This document shows positions 2,261-30,442 of a stretch of DNA of 32,000 nt, piece after piece (the first letter of the stretch is position 1; each line of letters starts with the position of its first letter). This stretch comes from Nostoc punctiforme PCC 73102. Lineage in GTDB: Bacteria; Cyanobacteriota; Cyanobacteriia; Cyanobacteriales; Nostocaceae. The position numbers and the translations under genes were made by a program. The notes beneath the pieces are model-generated. The model was not told the origin of the DNA. It did not search any database and worked only from the letters and a program-made list of their open reading frames with translations. The stretch is taken from the NCBI RefSeq assembly GCF_000020025.1, contig NC_010628.1:3090001-3122000 (forward strand). Direction: 5' to 3'.

Positions 2261-3286
2261 ATGTCTCGCTCTAAAGCTTTACAATATTACATAGTTTCTC
2301 GGTTGCTTCTCGCACCACTTCAGCTATTAACAATTATTACCATTGTCTTTCTCTTATTAAGAGCAACACCAGGAGATCCCGCAGATGCAATTCTTGGTGG
2401 ACGTGCGCCAGAAGCTGCTAAAGAAGAATTGCGGAAACAACTAGGTTTAAACTTTCCTTTGTGGCTACAGTACCTAAATTACTTGGGAAGCATACTGCGC
2501 TTTGACTTGGGAACGTCTTTAATGAGTCGCGGACAGAATGTTTGGGACATCATTGGGCAATATTTCCCGGCGACGGTGGAGTTAGCAGTATGTAGTATGG
2601 CGGTTGCACTCATCGTTGGAATTGCGGTTGGGACTCTTTCAGCTTCTCGTCCTGGGACATATTTCGATGTCGGCGGGCGCTTATTTGGGATCATCACCTA
2701 CGCACTCCCCATGTTTTGGGCGGGAATGCTTTTGCAGTTGATTTTCTCAGTCCAACTGGGTTGGTTTCCCAATTCCAACCGCTTTCCGCCTAATCTTCCG
2801 GCTCCCACTCCTGTGACTGGGTTGTATACAATTGATAGCTTACTCGGTGGAAATCTCACCCAGTTTTTCACATCTTTGCACCATCTTGCCCTACCGAGTC
2901 TGACTTTGGGAATTCTGCTGAGTGGGATTTTTGAACGAATTGTGCGAGTGAATTTAAAGCAAACCTTGCAAGCAGATTATGTAGAAGCCGCTAGAGCCAG
3001 AGGTATTGGTGAAAATAAAATTTTAGCCTCCCATGCCTTAAAGAATGCTCTAATCCCAGTAATTACAGTCTTAGGATTAACTTTTGCCTCTCTGTTGGGT
3101 GGAGCGATTTTGACAGAAGTGACATTTTCTTGGCCTGGGTTAGCTAATCGACTGTATCAAGCGATCGCAGATCGCGATTATCCCACAGTTCAAGGGGTGC
3201 TAGTATTTTTTGGTGCGATCGTTGTGAGCGCCAGCATTTTGATTGATATTTTAAATGCTTATGTAGATCCGCGAATTCGCTACTAA
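2261..3286 (+). CDS. ABC transporter permease (DppB/OppB-like)
   Basis: 341-aa polytopic ORF with the typical N-terminus ..LLRATPGDPA.. and an EAA-like loop (DYVEAARARGIGENKILASHALKNAL). Confidence 0.9.
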   Translation: MSRSKALQYYIVSRLLLAPLQLLTIITIVFLLLRATPGDPADAILGGRAPEAAKEELRKQLGLNFPLWLQYLNYLGSILRFDLGTSLMSRGQNVWDIIGQYFPATVELAVCSMAVALIVGIAVGTLSASRPGTYFDVGGRLFGIITYALPMFWAGMLLQLIFSVQLGWFPNSNRFPPNLPAPTPVTGLYTIDSLLGGNLTQFFTSLHHLALPSLTLGILLSGIFERIVRVNLKQTLQADYVEAARARGIGENKILASHALKNALIPVITVLGLTFASLLGGAILTEVTFSWPGLANRLYQAIADRDYPTVQGVLVFFGAIVVSASILIDILNAYVDPRIRY

Positions 3287-8878: not shown

Positions 8879-8963
8879 AGGAATGGGGAATGGGGAATGG
8901 GGAATGGGGAATGGGAGAAATGACTAATGACTAATGACTAATGACCAATGACCAATGACAAAT
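8879..8963. repeat. Two adjacent STRR-type heptamer arrays: (AATGGGG)x~5, then (AATGACT/AATGACC/AATGACA)x6
   Basis: Read directly from the sequence. TGACCAA is the complement of TTGGTCA, one of the STRR heptamers known from heterocystous cyanobacteria. The arrays lie in the MFP-RND intergenic spacer. Confidence 0.9.
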
Positions 8964-8983: not shown

Positions 8984-11900
8984 ATGTCCTTTAATATCTC
9001 AGCTTGGTCGATTAAAAAACCTGTTCCTACGATAGTTTTATTTTTAATTTTGACGGTTGTGGGTTGGTTCTCCTTTTTATCCTTGGGGATTGATACTAAC
9101 CCAAATATTGATGTCCCAACAGTTTCGATCAAAGTCACCCAACCAGGTGCAGGCCCAGCCGAACTAGAATCCCAAGTGACGAAAAAAATTGAAGATGCCG
9201 TCGCGGGGTTGGGCAATATCGATTTTATGATTTCCACCGTCAGCGATGGGAATTCTAAGACGACAATCAACTTTGTTTTGGGTACAGATAGCGATCGCGC
9301 CACCAATGATGTCCGCAATGCGATCGCTCAAATTCGCCAAGATTTACCCCAAGAGATCAACGATCCAATTGTGGAACGTCTAGACTTTGCCGACGGCCCG
9401 GTGATTACTTACGCGGTTAAATCAGATAAGCGTTCTGTAGAAGAGTTAAGCAATATTGTCGATCAAACTATTAGCCGCGCCTTATTGGGAGTCCGTGGTG
9501 TCGCCCAAATTCAACGTGTGGGTGGAGTTGACCGAGAAATTCGGATTAATCTGAGTCCCAGCCGCTTACAATCTCTGGGTATCACCGCCACTCAGGTAAA
9601 CGACCAAATCCGCGATTTAAACATTAACTTACCTGGCGGACGGGCTGAAGTCGGCGGTAGCGAACAAAGTATCCGCACATTAGGAAGTGCCGCCAGTGTG
9701 GATATTTTGAAAACCTACGAAATCCTCTTACCACAAGGCGGTTCCGTACCATTATCCAGTTTGGGAACTATAGAAGATAAATTTGGTGACGTGCGCCAAG
9801 CTGCTACCTTAAATAATCAACCTGTGGTAGCTTTCCAAGTGTTGCGTAGTACTGGCAGCGTTCTGGTGACAGTAGAACAAGGAGTGAAAGCAGCTGTCAA
9901 AGAACTGGAAAAAACACTTCCCGCAGATGTCAAACTAGATTTGATTTTTACTAGAGCCGATGTTGTTCGCCAATCATACCAAAGCACTATTGATGAATTA
10001 ATTCAAGCTTCGGTGCTGGCTGTCATCGTTATTTTAGTATTTTTGCGGGACTGGCGAGCAACATTAATTACGGCTGTTGCTTTACCATTGTCAATAATTC
10101 CCACTTTCGCAGTGCAGCAAGCCCTTGGTTACACCCTCAACAACATGACTTTGTTGGCATTAGCGCTGGCGGTGGGCAACTTGGTAGATGATGCCGTGGT
10201 GGAAATTGAAAACATGGAACGGCATATCGCTATGGGCAAATCAGCTTGGGATGCTGCTTTTGAATCTGCCGACGAAGTAGGATTAGCGGTAATCGCAAGT
10301 TCAGCAACGATTATTGCCGTGTTTATGCCCGTTGCTTTTATGGGTGGGATTCCGGGACAATTTTTCCAACCATTTGGTGTTACCGTTGCCGTTTCCACAA
10401 TTTTCTCAACTCTTGTCGCGCGGATGGTTACACCGATGATGGGGGCGTATCTTTTAAAAGAGGCAGGGGAGCAGGGGAGCAGGGGAGCAGGGGAGCAGAG
10501 GGAGCAGAGGGAGCAGAGGGAGCAGAGGGGCAGGGGAGCAGGGGGAGTAATAAGATTGTTTAATTTCAAGTTTGCAATCCCAGGTAGAAAGCAGGGAAAC
10601 AGAACACTCAGAACTGACAACCGTCGGGGGTTTCAACCTTATAGATCGTTATTACAATGGGCGTTACGCCATAGATTGACCACAATGGCGATCGCTTTAG
10701 CTTTCTTCATTGCCAGTCTGATGCTGGTTCCTTTAATTCCCAAGGGTTTCGTTGATGATGGCGACTTTGGGATTTCTAACGTATCTATAGAACTACCTCC
10801 AGGTTCGACATTAGAAGACGTTAATAAGGTAGTCACACAGGCAACTGATATCATTCGGCAAAACCCAGTAGTTGAACGTGTACTAGCAACCGAAGAGATC
10901 AATTCTGCAAGCCTGGCAATTAATCTCAAACCTAGAGAAGAACGAAAGATTTCTCAAAAACAGTTTGAGGAACAAGTACGCCCTGACTTTGAGCAAATAC
11001 CAGGAGCGAGAATTAGTTTTCAAAGTCAGTCACCAGGCGACAGTCGGAAGGGTTTATCAATTGTTCTCAGAAGTGAAAATCCCGAAGCATTGAATCAAGC
11101 GGCTGATGCCCTAGAAAAGCAAATGCGATCGCTACCAGGATTGGTAGAAGTGTCTTCGACTGCAAGCTTGGTGAAACCAGAGATTTTAGTAATTCCTAAC
11201 CCACAACGGGCAGCAGATTTGGGAGTGACAGTACAAGCGATCGCTCGGACAGCTTCTCTGGCCACCATCGGCGATAATGAGGCCAACTTGGCAAAATTTA
11301 ATTTAAGCGATCGTCAAATCCCGATTCGCGTACAAATCGATCCGAAAGTGCGGGCTGACATTAACACAATCACAAATCTGCAAGTCCTCAGTCAAAATGG
11401 CAAATTGATTCCCCTAGTGGCAGTTGCAGATATCCGTTTTGGTAGTGGCCCTGCAACCATCAACCGTTACGATCGCGCCCGTCAAGTTGCCGTAGAAGCC
11501 AATTTACAAGGGATTTCTTTGGGAGAGGCAGTAGAAACAATCAACAAACTACCTGTGATGCAAAACTTACCGCCAGGGGTAGTACAGCAACCCTCCGGTA
11601 GCGCCAAAATTATGCAAGAAATTTTTGGGCGCTTTGGTGGCGCGTTAGGGCTGGCATTAATGTGTATCTATGCGATTCTGGTGTTGCTGTATAACAACTT
11701 TCTGCATCCATTATCGATTATGGCGGCCTTGCCCTTTTGTTTAGGCGGCGCACTGGTGGCGTTGATGGTTGCTCAAAAACCATTGGGGATATATGCCTTG
11801 ATTGGTATCGTGTTGCTGTTGGGGATTGTCACCAAAAACTCAATTCTGTTGGTGGATTATACAATCATCAACATCCAAGAAGGCAAAACTCAGCGTCAGG

Positions 11901-13999: not shown

Positions 14000-16900
14000 A
14001 TGCTCACCATACCCCGCCACACCAGCAGATCGCTCTTTTTCCTTTTCTGTTTCACCCTACTCCTAACTCTCTTCCTCTCCCTACCTTGGGTAAACGCCAA
14101 AGAAACCCCCAAACCCAAACCCCAAGATTGGCAGATTAACGGTATAGTAGCCGCCCTTGATGACGGACACGACCAAGTTAAGAAATCTGCTTTTGACAAA
14201 CTCAATGAATATGATTTGCAAAATTTAAAATCAGTAGTTGAGAAACCAGAAAATATTGCTGACAAAGCCTTCAACATCCTCAAGGATAAATCCGTTGACA
14301 GTGATGTTCGTTCCAGTGCAGCAGTGGCATTGGGAAATCTGGGGGAGGCTGCCAAACCCTACGTCAAAGACATCCTCGACATCCTCAAGGATAAATCCGT
14401 TGACATTAATGTTCGTTCCAGTGCAGCAGAGGCATTGGGAAATCTGGGGGAGGCTGCCAAACCCTACGTCAAAGACATCCTCGACATCCTCAAGGATAAA
14501 TCCGTTGACAGTGATGTTCGTTCCGGTGCAGCAAAGGCATTGGGAAATCTGGGGGAGGCTGCCAAACCCTACGTCAAAGACATCCTCGACTTCCTCAAGG
14601 ATAAATCCGTTGACAGTTATGTTCGTTCCGATGCAGCAGAGGCATTGGGAAATCTGGGGGAGGCTGCCAAACCCTACGTCAAAGACATCCTCGACTTCCT
14701 CAAGGATAAATCCGTTGACAAAGATGTTCGTTCCGGTGCAGCAGAGGCATTGGGAAATCTGGGGGAGGCTGCCAAACCCTACGTCAAAGACATCCTCGAC
14801 TTCCTCAAGGATAAATCCGTTGACAAAGATGTTCGTTCCGGTGCAGCAGAGGCATTGGGAAATCTGGGGGAGGCTGCCAAACCCTACGTCAAAGACATCC
14901 TCGACATCCTCAAGGATAAATCCGTTGACAGTTATGTTCGTTCCGGTGCAGCAGAGGCATTGGGAAATCTGGGGGAGGCTGCCAAACCCTACGTCAAAGA
15001 CATCGCCGACATCCTCAAGGATAAATCCGTTGACAGTAATGTTCGTTACGGTGCAGCATCGGCATTGGGAAATCTGGGGGAGGCTGCCAAACCCTACGTC
15101 AAAGACATCCTCGACTTCCTCAAGGATAAATCCGTTGACAGTGGTGTTCGTTCCGGTGCAGCAGTGGCATTGGGAAATCTGGGGGAGGCTGCCAAACCCT
15201 ACGTCAAAGACATCCTCGACATCCTCAAGGATAAATCCGTTGACATTAATGTTCGTTCCAGTGCAGCAGAGGCATTGGGAAATCTGGGGGAGGCTGCCAA
15301 ACCCTACGTCAAAGACATCGCCGACATCCTCAAGGATAAATCCGTTGACAGTGGTGTTCGTTACGGTGCAGCAGTGGCATTGGGAAATCTGGGCGATGCT
15401 GCCAAACCCTACGTCAAAGACATCCTCGACTTCCTCAAGGATAAATCCGTTAACAGTTATGTTCCTTACGGTGCAGCAGTGGCATTGGGAAAGATAAAAC
15501 AACTCGAATTAAATGAGATTGTGGTAATTCTGGATAGCGTCTATTACGCAGGTCAATCAGAATTTGCACGGTGGCGATTTTTAACCTATTTCCTTGGTGG
15601 CGGCACTGATGAAGTCAAAACACTGCTTACATGGCTGGGGTTTCCTAAAAAAATTCCTGCTTCCTTACCCCATGACCAAGGCGTGAAAACTCTCAACATC
15701 TTTGCCCAAGCCTGGGAACCCAGCCAAGATTTTGCTCGATTACGGGAAGACTTAGCCAAACAAATCGCTGTAGTCGCCAGAAAAGTCTCTTGGCAACCCC
15801 AAGATATTGTTATTTTAGAAACTCACTACAAAAACCTCAAAAAAGCAGGATACAGTGAAACCGACTCACTGCAAGCAGCCATAGTTAACCTCAAAGGTTG
15901 GCAGTGGTTTTTCAACGCCAGAATCACCATCCTCACTCACGCTGCCTTCTGGCTTCTCCTCATCTTTGCCTACCCCAAATCCCCCCAAATCCAAGCCATC
16001 TTCTTCTGGAACCCGTGGGTACGCCGTATTCTCGGCATGGGCTACGTCGGCTTTCTCCTCACCTGGGTTCCCTTTTTCCGCCGCAAATTACTTGAACCCT
16101 TCAAGCCTTCCCTGTTAGCCGATGCCGGGTTAGATAACTTTCATGACCAATCATACTTCCCCCAGTCGCAAGTCAAAGTTACTTCGGGCGACATCCTCCC
16201 CATTACCGCCGCCCTCCCCAGCATCAAAGGACAAATCATCTTAGAAGGTGATTCTGGCTTAGGCAAGTCGATGTTTCTCCGCCATCTGTTGCAAAATCAA
16301 GAGCGCATTGTTGTTTACCTCCCCGCCCAAAAATGCGATAAAGGCGTAATCGAAGCCATTCAAGAAAAGCTACACGGGCAAGCCCAAGATGCGGGCTTCC
16401 TGAAAAACCTGATTTACAGTGGTGCAATTGACATCTGCATCGACGGACTCAACGAAGTCACCGCCGAAACACGGGCGAAAATCTGTCAGTTTGTCGAAAG
16501 CTATTTCCGGGGCAACATTATTATGACAACCCAGCCCCTAGAGTGGACACCACCCTCAACCGCCAAAACCTATTATTTGCAACCCTTAGAACAAAGCCAA
16601 ATTCAAGAATTTTTGCTTTCCCGCCAGCAGCGACTCCCCAAAGATGCCAAAATTCAAGGCGCTGATTACGCCCAAGCCTGCACCAATTATTTAACAGAAG
16701 TCCTCAAAGACCAACAAGCTCAAGAAGAATTAGAGGCTGCCCGTCGCATTCTCTCCAATCCAATGGATTTAACTGTAGTTGCCTTGATGTTATCCCAAGG
16801 CAAACATCCTAATTTATTCCGCCTGCAAGAACAGCAATACAACTTAATGGCGGCAGAATACCTCAAAGAATGGAATCAAGAATTTCCCTTAAAGAAATTC

Positions 16901-17620: not shown

Positions 17621-19213
17621 TCATTCATGTTCTATTGCGATCGCTCTTGGGGCATCGCCAACTGTTGCCAGTTGTACTGTAAATGTGGAACCTTCATATA
17701 ATTTACTTTTTACAGAAATAGATCCCCCACAGCGCAGCAGCAATTGCTGTACTATTGTTAACCCCAAGCCAGCACCAGCATAATCTTCTGTAGCTGATGT
17801 ACGCACACGATAAAATCGCTCAAAGATTTTAGCAATCTCGCTTTCGGCAATACCAATCCCTGTATCGCGGAATTCTAATTGGACATAATCGCCTTGAAGA
17901 CGGGCACGCACCCATACTTCACCCCCATTAGGAGTAAACTTAATGCTGTTGTGCAGCAGATTAATTACAATCTGCCTCAGCCCACCACTCACACACCAAA
18001 TAGATGGCAGTTCAGTGGGTACGGTGTAGGCTAGCATAATCCCTTTTTCTTGGGCTAAAGGTTGGTACGTACTAACTACTCCAGGTACAATATCTGAGAG
18101 CCGCACCGACTCCAAAACCATCCCCTCCAAATTACGTTCTAGTTGCACCAGTTCCAACAAACCTGTAATTAAAGAATTTTGTTGATCGCACTGGGTATTT
18201 AACATCTGTAAATAGCGTTGTCGCTGCGTAGGTTTGAGATTAGGAGAATTCAATAACGAAAGTGCTGTTTTGATATGCGTCAGGGGTATACGCAATTCCT
18301 GACAGAGATTTTTCAGATATTCATCTTGCAATTGTTCTTTGTTGTGCAGTTCTTGATTTATCTGCTGCAACTTGGTGGTGCGAGCTGTGATGATTTGGCG
18401 ATTAATTTCATCCTGTCGCAGGAGTTGTTTTGCAAATAGTTGACTCATCGTTGCCGCTTCCGGCATCGTTGGACAAATAAAATCAGCAGGTACAATTGGC
18501 GATGATTCTGGCGCGTAGACACCTGGTAGCTTGTCGTTAGATATCGCTTTTTGGATACCATTTAATACTTGCTGAATTACTCTTCCCTCAACAGTGGTGA
18601 TAATCAGCAATGGCTGATTTTTATTAGAATTTACCTTCCCTAATGTCTGATTTTTGCGTTTTTTAAGTGGTCGATGAGCCAAAATTAAACTACAAAACTG
18701 GGGTGATAACACCATCAAAAAGTTTTCCCGTCGCAGTTGGCTATCTGGTGGCAGGTGAACGGTGACATGATGAGTAGATGAGAAAGATGAGGGGGAAGGG
18801 TGCAAAGGAGAGGAATTTTCCCCCTGTTCGCTGCCCCCTGCTCCACTTCGGCTCCCTTCTCTACGAGAGGCTGCGCCAACGGCTTCGCTCAGGGCAGGAC
18901 GCTCAGTGACCACCTGCTCCCTGCCCCCTGCTTCCTCATCTCCCTGTTTTTCATTTTCGTCAAGCTGGCAAGTATAGATGATACTAAACGCACCCACTGA
19001 GGATTGGTAACGCGCTAATTCTGATTGCCAAATTTTTTCTGGTGGTAGCTTCACCCATAAAGTGGCTGCAATTTGCTGCTCAATTAGTAAGTCAATTTGC
19101 GCTCTCACCAGTGATAGCAGAGTCGCAGGACTGAGGGACAATGGTTTTGGAGGCACTTGCACTCCCATAACCAGTTGATAAACAGACAGATCCTTAGCCA
19201 GAGAAACATTCAT
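17621..19213 (-). CDS. Sensor histidine kinase (N-terminal sensory domain + HisKA + HATPase_c)
   Basis: H-box ELRIPLTHIKTALSLL, N-box LLHNSIKFT, G1 DTGIGI and G2 GAGLGL are present. The N-terminal domain is interrupted by a low-complexity, repeat-encoded insert. Confidence 0.9.
   Translation of the reverse strand: MNVSLAKDLSVYQLVMGVQVPPKPLSLSPATLLSLVRAQIDLLIEQQIAATLWVKLPPEKIWQSELARYQSSVGAFSIIYTCQLDENEKQGDEEAGGREQVVTERPALSEAVGAASRREGSRSGAGGSEQGENSSPLHPSPSSFSSTHHVTVHLPPDSQLRRENFLMVLSPQFCSLILAHRPLKKRKNQTLGKVNSNKNQPLLIITTVEGRVIQQVLNGIQKAISNDKLPGVYAPESSPIVPADFICPTMPEAATMSQLFAKQLLRQDEINRQIITARTTKLQQINQELHNKEQLQDEYLKNLCQELRIPLTHIKTALSLLNSPNLKPTQRQRYLQMLNTQCDQQNSLITGLLELVQLERNLEGMVLESVRLSDIVPGVVSTYQPLAQEKGIMLAYTVPTELPSIWCVSGGLRQIVINLLHNSIKFTPNGGEVWVRARLQGDYVQLEFRDTGIGIAESEIAKIFERFYRVRTSATEDYAGAGLGLTIVQQLLLRCGGSISVKSKLYEGSTFTVQLATVGDAPRAIAIEHE
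18815..18950. repeat. Dispersed repeat inserted in frame in the kinase CDS: a hairpin-element core flanked by C-rich CTGCCCCCTGCT(C/T)C runs
   Basis: The reverse complement of 18845-18876 is ggcgcagcctctcgtagagaagggagccgaag. This is near-identical to 28030-28061 inside the nrdJ intron. Confidence 0.8.
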
Positions 19214-19333
19214 GAGTCAAGCACAATAAGGATGAAGCAAGAAATAATTCTGTCTCGATTTTCACCTTTATCTGTCCATCTTTTACAAAAACCCTACGGA
19301 AAGAAACATTAACTATAAAAAAATCTACCCATA

Positions 19334-19408
19334 GGGGGAAGGGGAGAAGGGGGTAGGGGAGCAGGGGGCAGGGGGTAGGGGAAGCAGGGGGAGCAAGGGG
19401 AGCAAGGG
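19334..19408. repeat. G-run-rich tandem repeat, (GGGG/GGGGG separated by 2-5 nt) x ~10, upstream of the kinase gene
   Basis: Read directly: gggggaaggggagaagggggtaggggagcagggggcagggggtaggggaagcagggggagcaaggggagcaaggg. Confidence 0.9.
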
Positions 19409-19505
19409 AAGAAAAACTATTGATTATTAGCCCATTCCCCATACTTCGACTGCGCTCAGTACAAGTTCCTTATGCCCAATTCCCAATGCCCTATGCCCAA
19501 ATAAA

Positions 19506-26556: not shown

Positions 26557-27783
26557 ATGGTTCGAGAGCTAGAAAAAAAACGCCAGAGTGCAAAGTTTCC
26601 CGAAACAGCACCGGCTGCTAATCCCGTATTTTTTAGAACCTATAGCCGCCGGACTAAGGCGGGACTAAGGGAAACATGGGATGAGGTATGCGATCGCACT
26701 CTCCTCGGCTTAGTCGAGTTGGGAAAGCTCACTCAAGAAGAAGCTGCCATACTGGATAAGATGCAGCGCAACTTGAAAGCTATGCCCAGTGGACGCTGGC
26801 TATGGGTTGGTGGCACAGACTGGATAACCAAACCAAAGAACTTTTCCGGCGCTTATAATTGCACCTCTACCAATCTCGAAGACTGGAGTGCCTTCGGATT
26901 AATGATGGATCTGGCAATGATGGGCTGTGGTACTGGAGCCGTCCTAGAACCACAATTTATTAACCAGTTGCCCCCTATTCGTAATCAACTGAATGTTACT
27001 GTACAAGGTGAAATTGGCAGCACTCCTGTGCAACAGCGACGTGAATATACTCAAACTCATATAGAAGGCAATAAGGTCACTATTCACGTTGGAGATAGCC
27101 GTGAAGGTTGGGTTGAATCATATCAAGCCCTATTAGAACTCTCTACTGATGAACAGTTTTCAGCAGCAGTTGAAGTATTAGTTGATATCAGCGATGTCCG
27201 AAAAGCGGGAGAAACTCTCAACGGCTTTGGAGGAGTTGCTAATCCTGTGAAATTACCCGGACTTTATCAGCGTTGTGCTTCCATCCTGAGTAAAGCTGTA
27301 GGACGACAATTAAGTTCAGTTGAATGTTGTTTGTTAATCGATCAAGCTGCTGTAACAATTGTTGCAGGTAATATCCGAAGAAGCGCGGGGATGCGTCAGT
27401 TTATTGCTGACGATGAACAAGGAGCTACTGCCAAAGATAACTTATGGCAGCAAGATGAAAATGGCAATTGGCGAATCGATCCAGAGCGTGATGCACTCAG
27501 GATGGCAAACCATACCAGAGTTTTTCACCGAAAACCAACCTTAGAAGAATGTCTGAATGCTGTCCGCAAACAGTATTATAGCGGCGAGGGAGCGATTCAA
27601 TGGGCTGGTGAAGCCGTAGCGCGATCGAACATTGATTTGCTGCCAACACAAGCTTTGAAAGTTGAATTTTTACAAGCTTATGAACAAGGAACAGCAAAAC
27701 AGTGGTTAGAAGAACGTTATTCAAATCTTGATGCTAATGAGTTAGAACATCGTTTAGCTCGCTATGGGCTAAATCCGTGTGGT
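26557..27783 (+). CDS. nrdJ: Adenosylcobalamin-dependent ribonucleoside-triphosphate reductase (class II RNR), exon 1
   Basis: The N-terminus ..FPETAPAANPVFFRTYSRR.. is typical of cyanobacterial NrdJ. The exon ends at ..GLNPCG, the first part of the catalytic NPCGEI motif. The genomic frame then hits TGA after one more codon. Confidence 0.85.
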
Positions 27784-28166
27784 AAGTGATTTTGCCTCAC
27801 GTTAAAAACCTCGCAAAAACGGGGAAAGCTGAGATGCTAATCCCGTGGTAATCAAAGGAATTAAAAAGTCTTTGACACCGTACAGCGTAGAGAGTGAAAC
27901 TAGATAACATCAGAAATTTGTGTCTAGAATATAATCTCTCCAAGAGTGCGGGGGTGGATGTGAAAAACACTTGTGTTGAGCGGCTTTCCCTGAGCGTAGC
28001 CGTAAAGCCTGCGGCATAGCTACGCTTAGGGCGCAGCCTCTCGTAGAGAAGGGAGCCGAAACACTTTTATTATCTGAAGTCACATCTGCAAAAGGTACGC
28101 GGAGCTACTGCAAATAATCAAGCAGTAGAACTAGGGGATAAAAAGCCTCTAGGGTAACAAAGAAAG
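27784..28166 (+). other. Group I-type intron (383 nt, no ORF) interrupting nrdJ
   Basis: The 5' exon ends in U (27783) and the intron ends in G (28166). GCCUCAC (27794-27800) pairs with 5' exon GUGUGGU (27777-27783), including a U-G wobble at the splice site (P1). The immediately adjacent GAUUUU (27788-27793) pairs with 3' exon GAAAUC (28167-28172) (P10). Several internal stems are visible. Joining the exons restores NPCG-EIIGSNFHCNLSEV in frame. Confidence 0.75.
27972..28064. repeat. Hairpin dispersed repeat (MITE-like) nested in the intron
   Basis: The termini gtgttgagcggctttccc and gggagccgaaacac are imperfect inverted repeats. There is an inner palindrome gcgtagc...gctacgc. The core is shared with the kinase insert at 18845-18905. 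Confidence 0.75.
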
Positions 28167-29240
28167 GAAATCATCGGCAGTAATTTCCACTGCAATTTGT
28201 CAGAGGTTCACCTCAATCAAATCGACCCACGTAACTACAAAGAACAAGAAGAGGCTTTCACTGCTGGGGCGCTATCTGTAGCAGCACTTTTAAATCACAA
28301 ATTCTTGGAACCACGCTATCAATACAGCCGTGAATTAGACCCGATTGTGGGAGTTTCTTTTACAGGTTTATTTGATTTCTTTGTCCATGCTTTTGGTGTT
28401 GATTGGTTGCGCTGGTGGGAAGCAGGAAGACCTGCAACACCCCAAGGATTAGCTTTCAAGCGTGAGGAAGAAAAATATCTAAGCTCTTGGAAAGATATTG
28501 TACATCGTGTAGTTTGGGATTATTGCGATCGCCACAATCTCAAACGTCCAAATCGCTGTACCACAGTCCAACCCAGTGGTACTAAGGCTTTGTTAACTAA
28601 TGCTAGTTCAGGATGGCATCCCCCCAAAGCCCAAAGATTTATTCGCCGCATCACCTTCGGCAAAAATGATCCAGTAGCTTTAGCCTGTATTGACTACGGT
28701 TACAATGTCATTCCCTCACAATCAGACAAAGATGAACAGGGCAATTTGCTCAACGATCCCTTTGATTCACGGGTGAGTGAATGGCTAGTAGAAATCCCTG
28801 TTTCTGTATCTTGGGCAGATTTACCAGGTGCTGATGAAATTGATGTTTCTAAGTTTTCAGTCTTAGCCCAATTTGATTTTGTCCTCCAGGTTCAACGCTG
28901 GTATGTGACTCACAATACATCAGCTACTTTGGAACTGCGTTCTGATGAAATCGAACCTTTGGGACAGAAAATCTATGAAACTATTCAGAGCGATCGGGGA
29001 TATATTTCAGCAGCTCTTTTAGCTCGTTTTGATGACTTGCAATCATTCCCACGTTTACCATTTGAACCAATAGACAAACCAACCTACGAGCGCTTGAATC
29101 AAGAGGTGAAAACACGGCGGAAAACAGATGATTTCTGTGCAGTCTTAAGCCGCTACGATTTAGGTGAAATGTCAGAGGCTGGCCCTAGTGGTTGTGATTC
29201 TGATAAATGTATGTTTCCCGATCAGCAACCAAGCTCATAA
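28167..29240 (+). CDS. nrdJ: Class II ribonucleotide reductase, exon 2
   Basis: Same frame as track ORF 28197-29240, extended upstream to EIIGSNFHCNLSEVHLN. The C-terminus carries the redox cysteine pair (..GCDSDKC..). Confidence 0.85.
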   Translation, partial: EIIGSNFHCNLSEVHLNQIDPRNYKEQEEAFTAGALSVAALLNHKFLEPRYQYSRELDPIVGVSFTGLFDFFVHAFGVDWLRWWEAGRPATPQGLAFKREEEKYLSSWKDIVHRVVWDYCDRHNLKRPNRCTTVQPSGTKALLTNASSGWHPPKAQRFIRRITFGKNDPVALACIDYGYNVIPSQSDKDEQGNLLNDPFDSRVSEWLVEIPVSVSWADLPGADEIDVSKFSVLAQFDFVLQVQRWYVTHNTSATLELRSDEIEPLGQKIYETIQSDRGYISAALLARFDDLQSFPRLPFEPIDKPTYERLNQEVKTRRKTDDFCAVLSRYDLGEMSEAGPSGCDSDKCMFPDQQPSS

Positions 29241-29389
29241 GGTGAAATAACATCAACTTAGGGTAGGCACTATTTATTTACAGAACTTAGGCACGAGTTA
29301 CGGAATAACGAACCACAGAGACGCAGAGGACACAGAGAAATGAGAGTTTGAAAAATGTTGTGCGTAAGTCCTAATTTATTACAATAAAC

Positions 29390-29427
29390 AGCAGTGGTTT
29401 AATATGACATTAAACCACTGCTTTTTC
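29390..29427 (+). terminator. Rho-independent terminator after nrdJ
   Basis: AGCAGTGGTTTAAT (29390-29403) pairs with ATTAAACCACTGCT (29409-29422): a 14-bp perfect stem with a 5-nt loop, followed by TTTTT. Confidence 0.85.
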
Positions 29428-29428
29428 T

Positions 29429-30442
29429 ATGAAAGCTTACGAAATTAAAAGCAACGCTGGGATTGATGCCCTTGCATTAGTCGATCGCGCTGAACCAAAA
29501 CCAACTGCGGGACAAGTTCTCATTCAAGTCAAAGCAACATCCTTAAATTACCGCGATTTGCTCGTCGCTGAGGGTGCTTACGGTGCTGGACAGAAATATC
29601 CCTTAATTCCCCTATCTGACGGTGCAGGGGAGGTTGTGGCGGTGGGGGAAGGTGTGACACGGGTGAAAATAGGCGATCGCGTCGCTGGTATTTTCTTCCA
29701 AGACTGGATTTATGGCTCTTTAACCAAAGAGAAAATGAAATCCGATCTCGGAGGCGGTATCGATGGAATGCTGGCTGAATATGTCGTATTACACCAAGAT
29801 GCTTTGGTAATATTACCTGATTATTTATCCTACATTGAAGGGGCAACTTTACCCTGTGCAGCAGTCACAGCTTGGCATGGACTGGTGACAAAAGGCAATA
29901 TTGGCGCAGGTGATAATGTTTTATTACTCGGTACTGGGGGAGTTTCGATTTTTGCTCTCCAGTTTGCCAAGATACATGGTGCTAGAGCAATTATTACTTC
30001 CAGCAGTGATGATAAATTAGCACGAGCTAAACAGCTTGGTGCTGACGAGACAATCAACTACAAAACAACACCAGATTGGGAAAAGCAAGTTTATCAATTA
30101 ACTAATCGCACTGGTGTAGATCATGTAGTTGAAGTAGGCGGTGCAGGTACTCTGCCAAAATCACTACAAGCAGTCCGTATTGGGGGACGGATTAGTTTGA
30201 TTGGCGTATTGTCAGGAAGAGGAAGTGAAATTGACCCCATGCCAATACTTTTTAAGAGTTTAACAGTTCAGGGCATTTATGTCGGCAGTCGAGAAATGTT
30301 TGAGGCGATGAATCAGGCGATGCAACAGCATCAAATCAAACCAATTATTGATCGAGTTTTTCCTTTTGCTGAGGCACGAGAAGCTTATCATTATCTTAAA
30401 AGTGCGGCTCACTTTGGGAAAATCGTAATTCGTAATTCGTAA
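29429..30442 (+). CDS. NAD(P)-dependent MDR-family oxidoreductase (zinc-type alcohol dehydrogenase / quinone oxidoreductase-like)
   Basis: 337-aa ORF with a GroES-like N-terminal domain and a Rossmann motif, LLLGTGGVSIFALQFAK. The last codons and the stop are supplied by a (CGTAATT)x4 heptamer array at 30424-30451. Confidence 0.85.
   Translation: MKAYEIKSNAGIDALALVDRAEPKPTAGQVLIQVKATSLNYRDLLVAEGAYGAGQKYPLIPLSDGAGEVVAVGEGVTRVKIGDRVAGIFFQDWIYGSLTKEKMKSDLGGGIDGMLAEYVVLHQDALVILPDYLSYIEGATLPCAAVTAWHGLVTKGNIGAGDNVLLLGTGGVSIFALQFAKIHGARAIITSSSDDKLARAKQLGADETINYKTTPDWEKQVYQLTNRTGVDHVVEVGGAGTLPKSLQAVRIGGRISLIGVLSGRGSEIDPMPILFKSLTVQGIYVGSREMFEAMNQAMQQHQIKPIIDRVFPFAEAREAYHYLKSAAHFGKIVIRNS

Follow-up and report, generated by a model that had tools for sequence, protein, structure and literature searches.

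The stretch of DNA analysed here, referred to below as the window, comprises 32,000 nucleotides (nt) of Nostoc punctiforme PCC 73102 (contig NC_010628.1, positions 3,090,001 to 3,122,000), and contains on its forward strand two called open reading frames (ORFs), 26557-27789 (410 aa, ending ..GLNPCGK before the stop) and 28197-29240. An earlier reading of the letters alone (the original prediction) had taken these ORFs for the halves of a class II ribonucleotide reductase (RNR) gene, nrdJ, interrupted by a compact group I-type intron at 27784-28166. The gene assignment holds: exon 1 carries the Pfam domains RNR-II_ins_dom (class II RNR insertion domain) and RNR_Alpha, and deletion of 27784-28166 yields an uninterrupted 766-aa ORF that reads ..ARYGLNPCG/EIIGSNFHCNLSEVHLN.. 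in frame (the slash marks the junction), just as the predicted joining of ..GLNPCG to EIIGSNFHCNLSEV.. required. Moreover, the joined protein can be aligned across the junction to the RTPR of Lactobacillus leichmannii (PDB 1L1L, GTNPCGEISLAN..CNLFEV), with GLNPCGEIIGSN.FHCNLSEV in the query facing GTNPCGEISLANGEPCNLFEV in 1L1L. The 383-nt insert splits nrdJ, which encodes a class II, B12-dependent RNR and is essential for making DNA precursors, at the active-site loop, between a glycine and a glutamate; as called, the exon-2 ORF begins at a TTG 10 codons downstream and excludes EIIGSNFHCN. The insert has many stops in each of its three forward frames, and consequently it is neither an intein, a reading that we dropped on these grounds, nor a coding spacer. 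A group II intron was also considered for 27784-28166 and dropped, given the size of the insert and the absence of a domain V. As had been predicted, no intron-encoded homing endonuclease is found in the window copy, judging from the three-frame stops and from the ORF list, where small ORFs of 41-57 aa appear.

The same interruption recurs widely among cyanobacteria. Searched against proteins, the exon-1 ORF yielded 835 relatives, and among the best 120 of these, 115 are 409-423 aa long and end at the same place, their sources including Nostoc, Anabaena cylindrica, Tolypothrix, Scytonema, Sphaerospermopsis, Microcoleus and Symplocastrum. When metagenomes were queried with the final 200 residues of exon 1, 80 nrdJ loci were obtained, in each of which both exons were located. 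Contigs end too early in 11 loci, leaving 69 informative ones, and in 36 an insert homologous to that of the window lies exactly between ..CCGTGTGGT and GAAAT..; the gene is uninterrupted in 20, contains one or two inteins in the active-site loop in 12, and in one (L133) bears an unrelated 245-nt insert at the same point. In this survey no group I insertion was seen in nrdJ at any site other than the Gly-Glu boundary. A further scan of genome contigs with the joined protein returned uninterrupted alleles only and is uninformative on intron homologues, which it missed because its ranking favours contiguous matches. We extracted 33 family members, ranging from 253 to 1159 nt, and a T precedes and a G ends every one of them; in the window these bases are T27783 and G28166, so that the terminal U and G named in the original prediction are shared by the whole family. 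The first in-frame stop follows at codon 2 in 28 of the 33 members, at codon 3 in three and at codon 7 in two. Among intron-bearing nrdJ alleles the ratio of nonsynonymous to synonymous substitution rates (dN/dS) is 0.04-0.10 (552-556 codons across both exons; dS up to ~3), which indicates that nrdJ is not a pseudogene but a gene on which purifying selection acts strongly.

Since Rfam 15 gave no group I match for the insert (discussed below), its fold was derived by comparing family members and then tested on a MAFFT alignment of 23 distinct members. Under the model, 95.1% of alignment cells are paired, against 36-48% when partners are slid by 1-3 columns; changes on both sides occur at 47 of 76 pairs (10-21 when slid), and the covariation score is 0.477 as opposed to 0.05-0.09, with none of 500 shuffles reaching any model value. 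Folding and the assignment of P3-P9, which the original prediction had named as a check, gave a complete group I fold with P1, P3-P9.1, P10 and a P3/P7 pseudoknot (Table 1). Its core follows the topology P3-P4-P5-P6-P7-P3'-P8-P7'-P9, in which P7 crosses P3 to form the pseudoknot typical of group I introns, and the intron is without a P2. The contiguous guide GATTTT-GCCTCAC read at 27788-27800 is indeed present, and its pairing with the 5' exon, anticipated as six of seven pairs and a splice-site U.G wobble, is extended to seven of eight when C27776-G27801 is added. P10, which had been called perfect over six nucleotides, does pair at all six, yet one of these is a U.G wobble and the helix is hence not strictly perfect. 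One P10 position (column 15/740) covaries with the synonymous Ile codon ATC/ATT of the 3' exon (AU:10, GC:7).

Table 1 Features of the interrupted nrdJ gene and of the predicted intron (all positions are those of the window; numbers in parentheses are intron coordinates, in which 1 = 27784)
Feature	Position	Strand	Basis
nrdJ exon 1 (codons 1-409, end ..Asn-Pro-Cys-Gly)	26557..27783	+	ORF list, Pfam, alignment to 1L1L
P1: 5' exon CGUGUGGU 27776-27783 / guide GCCUCACG 27794-27801, U27783.G27794 wobble; exon -7..0 with (11-18)	27776..27801	+	7/8 pairs; invariant 23/23
Predicted group I intron, 383 nt (288-nt core plus P8 insertion)	27784..28166	+	comparative fold; same stretch absent from contig L166
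In-frame UGA stop, codon 2 past the 5' splice site	27787..27789	+	first-stop survey of 33 members
P10 guide GAUUUU (5-10), pairs with exon-2 +1..+6 GAAAUC 28167-28172	27788..27793	+	covariation
P3 5' strand CCUCGC (26-31), partner GCGGGG 27948-27953 (165-170), then A-rich J3/4 AAAAA	27809..27814	+	covariation, RNAalifold, RNAfold
P4 CGGGG/UCCCG (37-41/58-62), J4/5 AA, P5 AGC/GCU (44-46/53-55, loop UGAGAU), J5/4 AA	27820..27845	+	covariation; viral relatives
P6 GGU/ACC (64-66/94-96) and P6a UCAAAGG/UCUUUGA (69-75/86-92), then J6/7 GUA 27880-27882	27847..27879	+	covariation; RNAalifold/RNAfold
P7 5' strand C-A(bulge)-GCGUA (C100, A101, 102-106), partner UACGC-G 28096-28101 (313-318)	27883..27889	+	covariation
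P7.1 GAGAG/CUCUC (107-111/153-157) and inner P7.2 CUAGAUA/UGUCUAG (117-123/138-144), between P7 and P3'	27890..27940	+	covariation
P8 GUGGAUGUG 27954-27962 / CACAUCUGC 28081-28089 (171-179/298-306), enlarged loop	27954..28089	+	8/9 pairs covary
Secondary insertion in P8 loop: 86-nt element and second copy of 8-nt AAACACTT (first at 27965-27972)	27973..28066	+	absent from L082, L083
J8/7 AAAAGG and P7 3' strand UACGCG	28090..28101	+	AAAA invariant
P9 CUACUGC/GCAGUAG (322-328/339-345) and P9.1 CUAGGGG/CCUCUAG (348-354/363-369, loop AUAAAAAG)	28105..28152	+	covariation, RNAalifold, RNAfold
3' tail GGUAACAAAGAAAG, terminal omega-G 28166	28153..28166	+	last base G in 33/33 members
nrdJ exon 2 (start Glu-Ile-Ile-Gly-Ser-Asn-Phe-His-Cys; stop codon included)	28167..29240	+	ORF list, joined ORF, 1L1L alignment, dN/dS

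Within the core, all six pairs of P3 and all seven of P6a covary, and in both P3 and P7 every alignment cell (100%) is paired. The adenines of J4/5 and J5/4 are invariant, as is the AAAA of J8/7. In P7 the G27885-C28100 pair beside the bulged A is invariant (23/23), with the three other pairs covarying (GCGUA/UACGC, GACUA/UAGUC, GAGUA/UACUC, GCAUA/UAUGC). An invariant G-C pair beside a bulged nucleotide in P7 is the classical guanosine-binding-site signature of group I introns, and G27885-C28100 is presumed to be the guanosine-binding pair. RNAalifold, which disregards pseudoknots and was blind to the model, recovers P1, P3, P5, P6, P7.2, P8, P9 and P9.1 and adds GGU/ACC at the base of P6, and RNAfold applied to the window intron alone finds the same helices together with P4 and P7.1 (z = -4.35); the GGU/ACC extension of P6 comes from these two programs. 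Two earlier assignments were given up: GAAUAUAAUCUCUC as J8/7 and P7', after covariation had given P7 as GCGUA/UACGC, and ACC/GGU as a helix enclosing P4-P5, after RNAalifold had paired GGU with the ACC past P6a. In locus L084 the J8/7-P7' segment reads AAAAUAUAGUCGG, near the Rfam group I consensus AAGAUAUAGUC, and the P7 5' stretch, GUACAGACUAGAG, likewise resembles the consensus GUUCAaAGACUA. Between the P7 5' strand and P3' lies a 51-nt arm made up of P7.1 and P7.2, with covariation at 10 of its 12 pairs. An extra arm in this position is a hallmark of subgroup IA in the Michel-Westhof classification, and with this arm and without P2 the intron looks like a member of that subgroup.

Two 698-aa proteins among the matches (P0040 and P0047) read continuously through NPCGEIIG. 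The first is encoded on contig L166 (3275 nt; Logan assembly of SRR8435153), which corresponds to window 26560-27783 joined to 28167-30217. Over these 3.27 kb there are 0 mismatches, and each block has one gap of a single base; exactly 27784-28166 is absent, and the contig contains the predicted ligated junction. Contigs from other runs, L081 (100% identical) and L163 (99.5%), retain the intron and break inside its repeat element (described below), as DNA assemblies do. The unspliced 410-aa product was found in four other samples (SRR16479525 is one that was named), and SRR8435153 is not among them in the look-up; a literature search on the Sequence Read Archive run numbers found no mention of them. 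The simplest reading, strong but not conclusive, is that L166 would be an assembled cDNA of this strain. L166 starts at window 26560 and L167, which is also intron-less and comes from a different run and strain, at ~26553, both near the nrdJ start codon at 26557, and this shared start may mark an RNA 5' end or a processing site. With a complete covarying fold, conservation of the insert at one site across the family and a contig carrying the predicted exon-exon junction, the group I interpretation put forward in the original prediction is well supported, and we conclude with high confidence that 27784-28166 is a functional group I intron.

A feature that the original prediction missed is that ~94 of the 383 nt (27973-28066) are a secondary insertion of a repeat element in the loop of P8. 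The ribozyme core itself is 288 nt, as in the introns of L082 and L083. The 86-nt element holds a 13-bp hairpin (CCCTGAGCGTAGC/GCTACGCTTAGGG) and is flanked by an 8-nt direct repeat; 31 of its bases are identical to window 18847-18877 on the reverse strand, and 53 nt are 89% identical to L002 2367-2419, which lies outside nrdJ on a Cyanocohniella contig. The element thus looks like a small dispersed repeat or MITE (miniature inverted-repeat transposable element) nested in the intron. In other members the P8 loop is occupied by ORFs. Those of L088, L131 and L145 (intron nt ~177-1143) contain an ORF of 322-345 aa with a PD-(D/E)xK-like motif and Pfam matches to Phage_endo_I (4e-6, below its cut-off), NUMOD3 and a zinc finger, L102 contains a GIY-YIG/NUMOD ORF above Pfam cut-offs, and ORFs rich in helix-turn-helix motifs also occur in this position (L096 in this group). 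Decayed pieces of a long endonuclease-like ORF remain in L124, L140 and L097, and both the window and L082 retain its last 29-35 codons, over P8'-P7'-P9-P9.1 (E=1e-14; ~28068-28154 in the window). These last ~29 codons survive because they overlap the ribozyme core. Invasion, decay and loss make up the usual cycle of homing endonuclease genes, and the window copy, as judged by comparison with its relatives, has lost its endonuclease gene and later gained the repeat element. The remnant fits the report that homing ORFs often use conserved intron sequence as distal coding region (PMC2677866).

Relatives of this intron are not confined to cyanobacteria. When the 288-nt core was compared with phage genomes by BLASTN, partial matches appeared in several phage groups: in the Clostridioides (C. 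difficile) phages phiCD211 and phiCDIF1296T between tail genes, between a pair of DNA helicase ORFs in the crAss-like phage cr118_1, and further in Lak-A1, Enterocloster phages and Staphylococcus phage 6ec; in phage 6ec and the Staphylococcus phages related to it, the match is limited to the final ~40 nt of the core and lies inside the tape-measure gene. A covariance model built from cyanobacterial sequences only and spanning P3 5' to P7 5' (R1) matches the window once only and scores 72 bits in phiCD211, 71 in cr118_1 and 31 in a third phage. More than 120 IMG/VR viral contigs contain an exact copy of the 3' motif GGATAAAAAGCCYNTAGGNTAACAA, and R1 finds 54 places in 80 of those viral loci, usually 100-200 nt upstream of the motif. 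In 48 viral relatives P4, P5 and P6 pair in 96.8% of cells, with 14 of 15 pairs covarying. The recurrence of R1 matches, 3' motif and P4-P6 covariation in viral contigs makes this intron class a common phage-type one. The phage introns are homologous to that of the window in ribozyme sequence and structure, share an identical 3' motif and likewise sit between gene halves; they differ in their host genes (tape-measure/tail and DNA helicase) and in occurring in phages of Firmicutes and Bacteroidetes. In L172 (phiCD211) the homologue, at 2487-2742, stands directly upstream of 2768-3033, a GenBank misc_RNA labelled Intron_gpI. Rfam 15 reports neither stretch at E<=0.01; the pair may represent introns in tandem between the tail genes, or the annotation may be imprecise.

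Group I introns have been described in the RNR genes T4 nrdB, T4 nrdD and Twort nrdE, and in those of Bacillus prophages and B. anthracis (PMC3984707, PMC3653736), and as of 2009 the curated group I introns of RNR genes in RNRdb already numbered more than 100 (PMC2795772). The phage IA2 introns (T4 td, nrdB and nrdD/sunY; Twort nrdE) resemble the one reported here in interrupting RNR or thymidylate synthase genes at conserved codons of the active site, in bearing extra helices between P7 and P3', and in placing endonuclease ORFs in peripheral loops, as the relatives of the window intron do. T4 td and the window have the short motifs AAACGGGGAA...AAUCCCGUGCUAA and AAACGGGGAA...AAUCCCGUGGUAA, respectively, as well as AAUCCCGUG.UAA in common; td, however, possesses a P2 and carries its ORF in P6, whereas P7.1 and P7.2 of the window intron are joined in a single continuous arm and covariance-model scores against the IA2 introns are not significant. 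For cyanobacteria, the expectation in the original prediction that some RNR genes contain group I introns is correct (PMC2853384, PMC1995217, PMC12702839). In Arthrospira a class I RNR gene has two, each with a stop codon just past the insertion site (PMC2853384). Moreover, Meng, Zhang & Liu (2007, J Bacteriol 189:2150), as represented in later papers, reported that the class II RNR (RIR) gene of N. punctiforme PCC 73102 contains a group I intron with an insertion sequence inside it (PMC2853384, PMC1995217, PMC3984707); papers citing them describe this intron as spliced (PMC2853384, PMC1995217, PMC12702839), and one refers to them for the statement that some group I introns are without P2 (PMC12702839). 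As far as these citing passages allow comparison, their intron shares with that of the window the class II RNR gene, the group I type, the lack of P2 and a transposable element inside, whereas the copy they describe has a full insertion sequence and the window copy the 86-nt repeat element only. Because gene, P2-less structure and inserted element agree, and only one group I site was seen in nrdJ, we infer by way of the citing papers that the two are very probably of the same family and at the same site. A group I intron in this gene is already documented, and the novelty of the finding is low.

Several points weigh against our interpretation. At gathering threshold, Rfam 15 Intron_gpI (RF00028) has no match across the window, where such a match had been proposed as a check, nor in the other 19 loci searched, and on 27600-28400 no group I or group II match appears even at E<=10. 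R1 gives insignificant scores on T4 td (8 bits) and on Twort (16 bits, E=0.2). The site of the intron of Meng et al. is taken from inference rather than direct comparison, as represented in the papers that cite them, the reading of L166 as spliced RNA presupposes an RNA library for SRR8435153, and splicing of this particular sequence is a prediction from comparison. The Rfam result is uninformative, and a false negative, because T4 td and 11 viral homologues are equally missed: T4 td is a textbook self-splicing group I intron, and RF00028 finds no match at E<=1 in the td control (L175, td locus of a T4-like phage) and none at gathering threshold in the viral homologues (IMG/VR loci, the best of the intron class). 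RF00028 is therefore blind to these IA-type introns, and a match to an Rfam model is in any case a criterion of the tool and not a defining biological feature. The same library does recognise the L133 intron at the same nrdJ site, at 77 bits. Applied here, the refuting condition named in the original prediction, a failure of covariance models to show a group I core, would thus have rejected the intron wrongly. A match to SAM_alpha, overlapping P1, scored 19.6 bits against a gathering threshold of 36 and was dismissed as chance. Given the insignificant R1 scores, the tie to proven ribozymes rests on architecture and short motifs, and the subgroup IA label is architectural only.

If 27784-28166 works as a group I intron, the pre-mRNA would fold into P1-P10, and a free guanosine bound at G27885-C28100 of P7 would attack the bond after U27783, which forms the U.G wobble with G27794. 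The adjacent guide GAUUUU would align the 3' exon through P10, the terminal G28166 would swap into the guanosine site, and the 3' OH of exon 1 would attack after G28166, ligating GGU/GAA and restoring the Asn-Pro-Cys-Gly-Glu loop; ribosomes reading through from exon 1 would be halted by the UGA two codons into the intron. Both the catalytic chemistry and the independence from proteins in this scheme are proposed by analogy, and the intron might instead be of group I descent yet unable to splice autonomously, its excision needing a protein cofactor, or being inefficient or regulated through the P8 repeat or through coupling to translation. A foreign insertion of 94 nt in the P8 loop, the absence of a maturase or endonuclease ORF and the conserved in-frame stop near the 5' splice site, which suggests interplay with ribosomes, would all be in keeping with such dependence, as would the reported effect of translation on splicing of T4 introns (references listed in PMC3984707 and PMC3653736). 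We nevertheless regard it as unlikely, in that the insertion occupies a peripheral loop where relatives tolerate ORFs of 0.5-0.9 kb, all core helices are intact, and the ligated junction is present in L166, a contig 100% identical to this very, MITE-bearing allele.

Gene callers annotate two ORFs here, and split RNRs occur in phages (PMC3045599, PMC3653736), among them Aeh1 nrdA and Thermus phage phiYS40 nrdJ-a/b (PMC3653736), so the halves might in principle be translated separately and assemble non-covalently, with an ordinary intergenic spacer between them. The break, however, separates Gly from Glu within the catalytic finger loop, a second polypeptide begun at the TTG would lose EIIGSNFHCN, and the supposed spacer is a covarying ribozyme fold whose P1 and P10 pair to both exon ends; together with the fused exons of L166 this makes a split gene very improbable. 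Scarcely any credence can be given to a pseudogene, inactivated by a mobile element (MITE or insertion sequence). While 27973-28066 is indeed a dispersed repeat with a flanking 8-nt duplication, it is nested in the intron and not in coding sequence, the 288-nt core is kept at the same site across divergent cyanobacteria, and the low exon dN/dS includes alleles with dS >1. A functional group I intron is hence the explanation that we retain.

The main value of this finding is one of annotation. Because gene callers and Rfam miss the intron, nrdJ is reported as two ORFs or as a pseudogene in very many cyanobacterial genomes, the intron going unnoticed in most of those from Nostocales. The locus also displays the life cycle of a homing intron, from endonuclease-bearing through decaying to endonuclease-free copies and then invasion by a small repeat. 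None of this alters how group I introns, or the biology of RNRs, are understood at present. On a more far-reaching reading, which we consider rather doubtful, cyanobacterial nrdJ and many phages with unrelated hosts (crAss-like, Lak, Clostridioides, Staphylococcus) would share one large class of IA-like introns without P2, coherent in sequence and systematically missed by the present Rfam model; the window intron would be a member, and the class might amount to an undescribed or under-annotated subgroup. In that case most Nostocales genomes would carry a mis-annotated 'split' or 'pseudo' nrdJ, and its expression, possibly the only route to deoxynucleotides (dNTPs), would depend on ribozyme splicing and could be gated by it.

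The active-site loop of nrdJ houses further mobile elements. At L133 3101-3345 a different 245-nt intron, IC3/tRNA-Leu-like, occupies the identical Gly-Glu site, and its P1 compensates synonymous exon changes (exon UUGCGGU / guide GCCGC). It resembles the window intron in insertion point, U.G wobble, omega-G and small size, whereas its sequence and subgroup are unrelated, its guide is another, and it alone of the two is detected by Rfam. Inteins are found at NP/C (before the catalytic Cys, two codons upstream of the intron site) in 11 loci and at FH/C (before the Cys of FHCNL, eight codons downstream) in six; L126, L139, L147, L151, L154 and L155 have the former only, L135 the latter only, and L103, L106, L108, L132 and L150 both. 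Inteins of cyanobacterial RNR genes thus share the loop with the window intron, but unlike it are in frame, free of stops and removed at the protein level. At least four independent elements, namely a pair of unrelated group I introns and inteins at two sites, fall within ~10 codons, which makes the loop a hot spot for mobile elements. In L116, L120, L122 and L134 the intron is accompanied by a further insert ~8 codons downstream.

Additional insertions were noted elsewhere in the gene. A domain V of a group II intron (Rfam Intron_gpII 59 bits; D5 family 66 bits) lies at L088 2056-2133, in or beside the exon-1 region of an nrdJ that also bears an endonuclease-carrying group I intron. L019 and L142 have an insert of ~1.96 kb at nrdJ residue ~86, and in L098 one of 1143 nt is placed at residue ~545; since each length is a multiple of 3, these inserts are probably inteins. 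In L001 a 22-residue N-terminal duplicate of nrdJ stands 630 nt upstream. Elsewhere in the window, 14274-15492 consists of a 105-nt unit repeated 11.6 times at 94% identity and in frame (35 codons), and probably encodes a repeat protein, and many short heptamer and octamer tandem repeats (8880-8963, 10463-10547, 19332-19409) are present, as is typical of Nostocales.

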